Assembly: GCF_003334355.1 (NCBI RefSeq)
Contig: NZ_QOWP01000025.1
Origin: Escherichia coli
GTDB taxonomy: Bacteria; Pseudomonadota; Gammaproteobacteria; Enterobacterales; Enterobacteriaceae
Strand: one strand, 5' to 3'
Length of the DNA stretch: 57,529 bases
In this document: positions 30,933-32,348 of the stretch, in pieces
How the letters are laid out: each line of letters begins with the position of its first letter
How positions within the stretch are numbered: the first letter of the stretch is position 1
The notes under the pieces: model-generated
Database searches by the model: none
Told to the model about the DNA's origin: nothing
What the model saw: the letters and a program-made list of their open reading frames with translations, nothing else
Made by a program: the position numbers and the translations under genes

Positions 30933-31832
30933 ATGCTCTCTCGACATATCAACTATTTTCTTGCCGTGGCTGAACATGGCAGCTTTACCCGTGCCGCCAG
31001 TGCGTTGCACGTCTCCCAGCCTGCGCTTTCCCAGCAGATTCGCCAGTTAGAGGAGAGTTTAGGCGTGCCGCTGTTTGACCGTAGCGGGCGAACGATTCGT
31101 CTCACTGATGCAGGAGAAGTCTGGCGACAGTACGCCAGCCGGGCGTTACAGGAACTGGGGGCGGGTAAACGGGCGATTCATGATGTTGCCGATCTGACGC
31201 GAGGATCGCTGCGTATCGCCGTCACTCCCACCTTTACAAGCTACTTTATCGGCCCTTTAATGGCGGATTTCTATGCGCGCTACCCCGGCATCACACTCCG
31301 GCTACAGGAAATGTCGCAGGAGAAAATCGAAGATCTGCTTTGCCGCGACGAGTTGGACGTTGGGATTGCCTTCGCGCCTGTGCATTCGCCGGAGCTGGAG
31401 GCAATTCCTTTACTGACAGAAAGTTTAGCGTTAGTCGTGGCGCAACATCATCCGCTGGCTGCCTGTGAACAGGTGGCGTTGAGTCGCTTGCATGATGAAA
31501 AACTGGTACTGCTCAGCGCGGAATTTGCCACCAGAGAGCAAATTGACCACTACTGCGAGAAAGCGGGGCTGCATCCACAGGTGGTCATTGAGGCGAACTC
31601 AATTAGCGCGGTTCTGGAGCTGATTCGCCGCACTTCCCTTTCCACATTGTTACCAGCAGCGATTGCCACACAACATGACGGGCTTAAAGCGATTTCTCTT
31701 GCCCCGCCACTACTGGAGAGAACGGCGGTTTTGTTGCGGCGGAAAAATAGCTGGCAGACAGCCGCCGCGAAGGCATTTTTGAACATGGCGTTGGAGGAAT
31801 GCGCGGTTGTTGGCGGGAATGAATCACGGTAG
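30933..31832 (+). CDS. cynR: LysR-type transcriptional activator of the cyn operon
   Basis: ORF track 30909-31832; trimmed to [25 protein letters not shown] (299 aa); the last ~84 nt form the first copy of the downstream tandem repeat. Confidence 0.92.
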
Positions 31833-32348
31833 CCGCTGACACAGGTCTGCGGCTGGAATTGCCTGATGCGCTACGCTTATCAGGCCTACGAGTTCAGTGC
31901 TCTACGTAGGCCGGATAAGGCGTTCACGCCGCATCCGGCATAAACTACAGCTGGCAGACTGCCGCTGCGAAGGCATTTTTGCACATGGCGTTGGAGGAAT
32001 GCGCGGATGTTGGCGGAAATGAATCACGGTAGCCGCTGACACAGATCAGCGGCTGGAATTGCCTGATGCGCTACGCTTATCAGGCCTACGAGTTCAGTGC
32101 TCTACGTAGGCCGGATAAGGCGTTCACGCCGCATCCGGCATAAACTACAGCTGGCAGACTGCCGCTGCGAAGGCATTTTTGCACATGGCGTTGGAGGAAT
32201 GCGCGGATGTTGGCGGAAATGAATCACGGTAGCCGCTGACACAGATCAGCGGCTGGAATTGCCTGATGCGCTACGCTTATCAGGCCTACGAGTTCAGTGC
32301 TCTACGTAGGCCGGATAAGGCGTTCACGCCGCATCCGGCATAAACTAA
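31749..32348. repeat. Tandem repeat, 3 copies of a 200-bp unit (cynR 3' end + stop + hairpin + REP pair); copies 2 and 3 identical, copy 1 differs at 7 positions
   Basis: Marker strings recur with period 200 (e.g. tctacgtagg at 31901, 32101, 32301; gaatcacggtagccgctgac at 31821, 32021, 32221). Confidence 0.95.

Follow-up and report, generated by a model that had tools for sequence, protein, structure and literature searches.

The window, the 57,529-nt stretch of Escherichia coli DNA analysed here (contig NZ_QOWP01000025.1), carries cynR on the plus strand and codA on the minus strand, and the spacer on which these two genes converge is filled by a single tandem array. Tandem Repeats Finder places the array at 31749-32351, with a period of 200, 3.0 copies, 98% matches, no indels and a score of 1150. 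Together with an alignment of the units, this confirms the initial annotation, made from the sequence alone, of three 200-bp units lying head to tail at 31749-32348 between convergent cynR and codA. The composition it gave for the unit is also correct: each holds the last 84 nt of cynR with the stop codon, a stem-loop and a pair of REPs. The full order is the 84-nt cynR 3' end, the hairpin, a z2-type inverted REP (iREP), a 16-nt linker, a y-type REP and a terminal TAAACTAC (Table 1). The last 84 nt of cynR form the opening of unit 1, and because the stop codon (TAG at 31830-31832) thus lies inside that unit, CynR is intact. On the other side, the codA stop codon is 28 nt from the last y REP.

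Table 1. Features of the cynR-codA locus (window coordinates)
Feature	Position	Strand	Basis
cynR CDS, 299 aa in relatives' annotation	30933..31832	+	ORF and collinear ATCC 8739 RefSeq locus, 900 nt
Repeat unit 1, 200 nt: live cynR tail, hairpin with one mismatch, BIME	31749..31948	+	unit alignment
Repeat unit 2: untranslated cynR-tail copy (31949-32032), perfect hairpin, BIME	31949..32148	+	unit alignment
Repeat unit 3: as unit 2 except for the final base; extra relative to ATCC 8739-type genomes	32149..32348	+	
Hairpin overlapping the cynR stop codon, AGCCGCTGA-N6-TCTGCGGCT	31830..31855	+	folding
Hairpin, perfect form	32030-32055 and 32230-32255	+	folding
z2-type inverted REP, 3' end CTAC	31860..31889; also 32060-32089, 32260-32289	+	
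BIME linker, 16 nt, GAGTTCAGTGCTCTAC	31890..31905; again at +200 and +400	+	sequence between the two REP matches
y-type REP, 5' GTAG	31906..31940; also 32106-32140, 32306-32340	+	
Unit junction, TAAACTAC|AGCTGGCAGAC	31941..31959 (join 31948/31949; second join 32148/32149)	+	
codA (cytosine/isoguanine deaminase)	32369..33652	-	ORF and annotation of collinear loci

That the paired elements are genuine REPs, as first described, is borne out by exact matches elsewhere in the window, where chance would supply none: the 30-nt z2-type sequence recurs at 49615 and 49707, and the 35-nt y-type sequence at 12503 (minus strand), 49661 and 49754. With the REP types and the GTAG/CTAC convention as defined in PMC3333891, the pair is of BIME-2 type, that is, z2 and y REPs in inverted orientation with a GTAG foot on the REP and CTAC on the iREP. 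The exact copies lie at other intergenic sites, as expected of a dispersed, many-copy extragenic element, and a 1201-nt query across the locus finds 8-30 matching places per genome. In its z2 and y REPs, their feet and inverted arrangement, its short linker and its strain-variable copy number the array resembles classical BIME-2 arrays. Such arrays, however, consist of REPs and linkers only, with a period of about 90 nt, whereas the unit here is 200 nt long with a single BIME, more than half of it being non-REP sequence (84 nt of coding sequence and the non-REP hairpin); we therefore rejected classification as a classical BIME-2 tandem array. Two ordinary BIME tandem arrays are present elsewhere in the window, each between co-directional ORFs and with a period of 93, at 39851-40136 (3.1 copies) and 49615-49788 (1.9 copies); the second has exactly the z2 and y REPs of the cynR-codA unit, with a different linker. 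We also considered an RNA gene within the array and rejected it, as an Rfam scan of 31400-32700 returned no match above threshold; those below it were to the REP-derived RNA family naRNA4 (41 bits, gathering threshold 59.5) and reflect generic REP resemblance.

How common is this arrangement? The 1201-nt query matched all 5426 complete E. coli genomes in our population set via its REPs, and alleles were classed by the record span at the locus: 1201 nt corresponds to three units, 1001 nt to two, 801 or 797 nt to one, 704 nt to absence of the BIME, and a span covering the codA part only to absence of cynR. Arrays were counted with a 54-mer centred on the unit junction, with 27 nt per side; since a single half is too short to seed a megablast hit, a genome must contain the junction to match. 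The 54-mer is present in 1537 of the 5426 genomes (28%), at 1737 places in 1539 records and at most twice per genome. From these counts, approximately 198 genomes carry three units, approximately 1340 carry two, and none carries four or more; two of the records with two places were read, and both contain three-unit arrays. Two units are found in K-12 (EMG2 and MG1655), E. coli B and ATCC 8739, and the annotated codA-cynR spacer of MG1655, 336 nt, corresponds to two units. In many genomes of relatives, PGAP/RefSeq annotates the copy of the 84-nt tail as a pseudo 'hypothetical protein, missing N-terminus'.

The comparison of copy number across E. coli genomes, which had been proposed as a check, thus upholds the suggestion that the locus is copy-number variable, with one, two and three units among the 5426 genomes. 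Its copies are head to tail, their number varies between strains, and three-unit arrays occur on two allele backgrounds, as in a VNTR or minisatellite. The array represents a structural polymorphism, similar to a minisatellite, in the spacer between E. coli cynR and codA, ordinary in kind and already reported. With bacterial VNTR/MLVA minisatellite loci it shares a long unit, one to three segregating copies and recurrent gain and loss; it differs from MLVA typing loci in having few alleles, and we found no use of the cynR-codA locus as a VNTR/MLVA typing marker in the set of papers searched.

Around a third of the sampled genomes have a cynR-codA spacer of 39 nt in which the hairpin is present and the BIME absent (E. 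coli L005, L009 and L010). Because the outgroup E. whittamii has the BIME, it appears either to have been lost in these lineages or to have been moved by recombination.

The window's exact three-unit allele is found in none of the 5426 complete genomes, and the two dozen listed records that share the top match score of ATCC 8739 all span 1001 nt, that is, two units (identity to the window minus one unit was verified for ATCC 8739 alone among them). Both observations would be expected if the third unit were an assembly error and the strain had two units like ATCC 8739-type genomes. We nevertheless consider such an error highly improbable. Some 198 complete genomes have three units, and one of these arrays, in NCTC11023, matches the window exactly from 31783 through codA. 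In addition, the collapse of identical repeats is a more frequent assembly fault than the gain of a unit, and a 600-bp array is short enough to be spanned by long reads. Given the near-identical NCTC11023 array and the number of three-unit genomes, the third unit in the window's strain is credible.

The three copies are not quite the same. Copies 2 and 3 had been described as identical, which is correct for 199 positions and fails at the last base, where 32348 is A rather than C. Copy 1 does differ at seven positions, as had been stated (unit positions 12, 18, 34, 59, 69, 97 and 100), all within the first 100 nt of the unit, and the 18-residue C-terminal translations given for copy 1 and for copies 2 and 3 are exactly reproduced. 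Five of the seven sites (12, 18, 34, 59 and 69) lie in the cynR tail, and single-copy cynR alleles vary at these sites too; TW10590, for instance, has the copy-2 states at positions 12, 18, 34 and 59. The remaining two are in the hairpin, where position 97 is G in copy 1 and A downstream, and position 100 is T in copy 1 and A downstream. All 9 of the 200-nt arrays fetched, like that of the window, have T100 in copy 1 and A97 downstream. The corresponding states in BIME-less alleles are G97 and A100, from which each copy departs by a single private change; comparison of these alleles identifies T100 and A97 as private substitutions that arose after the duplication.

The initial annotation had raised possible gene conversion at the cynR C-terminus, and conversion within the array would account for a mosaic such as copy 1 of NCTC11023, which has copy-2 states at positions 12, 18 and 34 and copy-1 states from 59 on. 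The tract does not stop at the repeat, however: upstream of 31783 NCTC11023 and the window differ at 15 sites in cynR, 12 of them outside the repeat, which is evidence of allelic exchange of cynR and not of a copy-2 donor. On this alignment, NCTC11023 marks an allelic recombination breakpoint inside unit 1. Conversion is likewise superfluous for five of the seven differences, since those sites segregate among single-copy cynR alleles, and T100 and A97 are private hairpin changes that followed the duplication. Allelic recombination seems to account better for the differences of copy 1, and we regard intra-array conversion as their source as quite unlikely.

To examine the origin of the unit we read, besides the window, 16 loci, namely 15 from E. 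coli (MG1655 for annotation only) and that of E. whittamii. A scan of genome contigs with a 22-mer from cynR had yielded only two loci, E. whittamii and a contig labelled Citrobacter, presumably because the E. coli representative genome is a cynR-less strain of phylogroup B2. The 'Citrobacter sp.' contig (a MAG, L017) has a BIME-less spacer like that of E. coli AF10, with few flanking differences, and may be mis-binned. In E. whittamii (L018, 8860-9090, minus strand) a single unit is present, hairpin and BIME included, and its right flank reads AAACTAC|GCTCGC. This ancestral flank is also present in STEC17-183 and O157; the left flank is AAAAAT|AGCTGG. As E. whittamii, STEC17-183 and the O157/O145-type alleles all have C at the flank, the A at 32348 in the window is a later substitution.

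The junction between units, CATAAACTAC|AGCTGGCAGAC, is the same in 11 of 11 arrays read (10 fetched genomes and the window), and is common to K-12, B, ATCC 8739, an STEC strain and a variant with 186-nt units. On the left the breakpoint (31748|31749) falls within the coding sequence of cynR, where nothing matches a REP; on the right it lies 8 nt past the 3' end of the y REP. Set against the ancestral flanks, the founding join is blunt, AAACTAC being placed against AGCTGG with no bases shared. These features contradict the description of the amplification as REP-mediated, in the sense of recombination between REPs, and we rejected REP-REP recombination as the founding event, as it would place both join-points inside REPs. 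Shyamala, Schneider and Ames are said to have described, in 1990, REP-REP recombination at the join-points of tandem duplications, the duplications reportedly being large and having both join-points in REPs. The present array resembles these in being a tandem duplication with a REP beside a join-point, and differs in that one breakpoint falls in REP-free coding sequence and the other 8 nt outside a REP. A simple microhomology join, through the AGCT or GCT present at both breakpoints, was also rejected, since the predicted junction is 1 nt shorter than that observed.

A second candidate for the founding event is enzymatic. The codA-cynR region of E. coli has been named as a case in which a BIME unit incorporated part of a gene (Ton-Hoang et al. 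2012, NAR 40:3596, PMC3333891, Supplementary Figure S7), and the authors themselves propose a model in which the REP-associated Y1 transposase, TnpA_REP/RAYT, is responsible. On this account the enzyme made the unit, and perhaps amplifies it, by binding the BIME, cutting single-stranded DNA at a distant C|T and rejoining the ends, thereby capturing cynR. The paper reports that TnpA_REP in vitro cleaves only at C|T and rejoins such ends, with cleavage more than 400 nt from the BIME and strand transfer, and points to this locus by way of example (PMC3333891). The position of the right breakpoint, a mere 8 nt from the y REP, is in keeping with the model, as are the presence of AGC|T within a few nucleotides of both breakpoints and the persistence of the junction unchanged even in the 186-nt-unit array.

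The join itself is harder to reconcile with this activity. The dinucleotide newly created is C|A and not the C|T expected of RAYT strand transfer (...AAACTAC|AGCTGG...). Joining at AGC|T or GC|T predicts ...AAACTACGC|TGGCAG... and a period of 199, against the observed ...AAACTACAGCTGGCAG... and a period of 200, so the model requires one extra 1-nt event, conceivably a later change. Moreover, later changes in copy number need not involve the enzyme, the units being 200-bp direct repeats, and no in vivo activity is known according to the paper (PMC3333891). Taken together, these observations make an origin through TnpA_REP unlikely. There is likewise a slim chance that the invariant, homology-free junction beside a BIME is a natural in vivo footprint of RAYT, which may still be driving changes between one, two and three copies. 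If this were true, the polymorphism would be a ready-made genetic assay for RAYT activity, so far seen in vitro only.

The invariant junction, together with the fixed private states T100 and A97, argues for a single founding duplication of some age, and the loci read fit one old event. Two observations count against this reading. First, an invariant junction would be expected from a recurrent site-specific process too. Second, CKJ_1000 (L014, NZ_CM176478.1, locus 800-1050) has a two-unit array of 186-nt units with the usual junction, in which both units are without the same 14 nt, corresponding to the right hairpin arm, as in O157-type alleles, and differ from each other at several cynR-tail sites. 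From its sequence, this array appears hard to derive in one step either from 200-nt arrays or from a single O157-type unit, and under a single origin it would need several steps of exchange.

Subsequent changes can also be read from the alleles. With one unit taken out, the window matches the ATCC 8739 locus over 4001 nt except at 2 positions, neither of them in the array. Three-unit arrays occur on K-12-type alleles (L002, L011 and L012) and on ATCC 8739-type alleles (the window and NCTC11023), and on each background copies 2 and 3 are the same as one another and as copy 2 of the two-unit allele of that type. OW1E2, with a single unit, has the derived T100 of copy 1, so its allele is a product of contraction. 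Changes from two units to three and from two to one are recurrent, and unequal homologous exchange or slippage between units is the best explanation for them. The amplification had been called recent, which is apt for the step from two units to three, given the identity of the window minus one unit to ATCC 8739. It is contradicted for the duplication as a whole by a junction common to diverse strains and by the fixation of T100 and A97.

What of function? As had been described, the stem-loop is perfect in copies 2 and 3, with a predicted folding energy of -17.2 kcal/mol (z -4.8); in copy 1, T100 breaks one stem pair, leaving an internal mismatch and a value of -15.9 kcal/mol (z -2.8). Across alleles the stem shows a compensatory pair, CCGCTGA/TCAGCGG against CCACTGA/TCAGTGG, the latter in BIME-less alleles. 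E. whittamii has CCACTGA/TCAGCGG, which is mismatched on the cynR strand and forms a G.U pair on the codA-sense strand; this variant is a hint that it is the codBA transcript, and not cynR, for which the hairpin is important. Some constraint probably acts on the hairpin, and given the compensatory change 'no function' may not hold for every part of the spacer. No T-run follows the hairpin on either strand (GGAATTGCC comes next on the plus strand and ACCGTGATTCATT on the minus strand), and a promoter/terminator scan did not call the hairpins, which are not intrinsic terminators of the hairpin and T/U-run kind. The scan did report a weak terminator-like site on the minus strand at 31753-31766, which consists of a stem of 5 pairs and then AGCTATTTTT; directed towards codA from within the 3' end of cynR, it abuts the left repeat boundary and, with 6 such sites in total against 2.7 expected, is probably due to chance.

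These data also bear on whether copy number is itself under selection, with the hairpin-BIME modules tuning termination, 3'-end stability or interference between convergent transcripts at cynR and codBA. REP elements stabilise upstream mRNA, which lends such a role some plausibility, as do the retention of the hairpin through a compensatory double change and the E. whittamii intermediate, with its G.U pair on the codA-sense strand only. Against selection, states of zero, one, two and three units are all common in healthy lineages, the right hairpin arm is entirely lost in O157-type alleles, the T-run is missing, and neither stop codon lies within 15 nt of a REP. Searches for expression data on this locus found none. 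As judged from these alleles, the duplication shows no sign of a function of its own, and we think it very unlikely that its copy number has been selected.

The following history would account for most of the above. The ancestral state, as indicated by the outgroup, would have been one unit: the end of cynR, the hairpin and one BIME (z2 iREP and y REP). A single, old, illegitimate tandem duplication would then have joined, bluntly and beside the structure-prone BIME, the base 8 nt beyond the y REP (…CATAAACTAC) to a position within cynR, 84 nt from its end (AGCTGGCAG…), producing a 200-bp unit in which the cynR tail is present as a dead copy. With a pair of direct repeats of 200 bp in place, copy number could shift via unequal homologous exchange or replication slippage, and the window's third unit would be a recent expansion from two units to three on an ATCC 8739-type allele. 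Copy 1, as the live gene end, would have been swapped among strains by allelic recombination, with the downstream copies retaining an older cynR allele. Each added unit would place one more hairpin and BIME in the 3' region common to the convergent genes, leaving CynR unaffected; the likeliest consequence would be none or slight, at most generic protection of 3' ends or termination of the REP type. Overall, an old illegitimate duplication followed by unequal exchange or slippage, giving a neutral polymorphism of the spacer, is probably the correct explanation.

The structure is already known, being present in K-12 and in more than a quarter of complete genomes, and mentioned in print. The unit described for codA-cynR by Ton-Hoang et al. 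is at the same locus in the same species and of the same kind, a BIME repeated along with part of a neighbouring gene. K-12 MG1655, with which that study worked, has two such units, whereas the window has three, and the junction reported here does not fit the C|T strand transfer proposed there. The biological weight of the finding is correspondingly small, the structure being widespread and previously mentioned.

Its practical implications are for mapping, annotation and assembly. The dead tails (31949-32032 and 32149-32232) differ from the live tail at five sites, and mis-mapping of short reads could mimic cynR variants; one evolution study records a lone 'sweep in cynR' in an E. coli B ancestor replicate, which might be such a case. 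Dead cynR tails that differ from the live gene are thus a trap, leading to false cynR variant calls and spurious pseudo-CDS, and the repeat may collapse in short-read assemblies. For the biology of E. coli, the common occurrence of one-, two- and three-unit states may offer a natural test of whether REP-associated transposase or homologous exchange drives BIME-linked changes in copy number.
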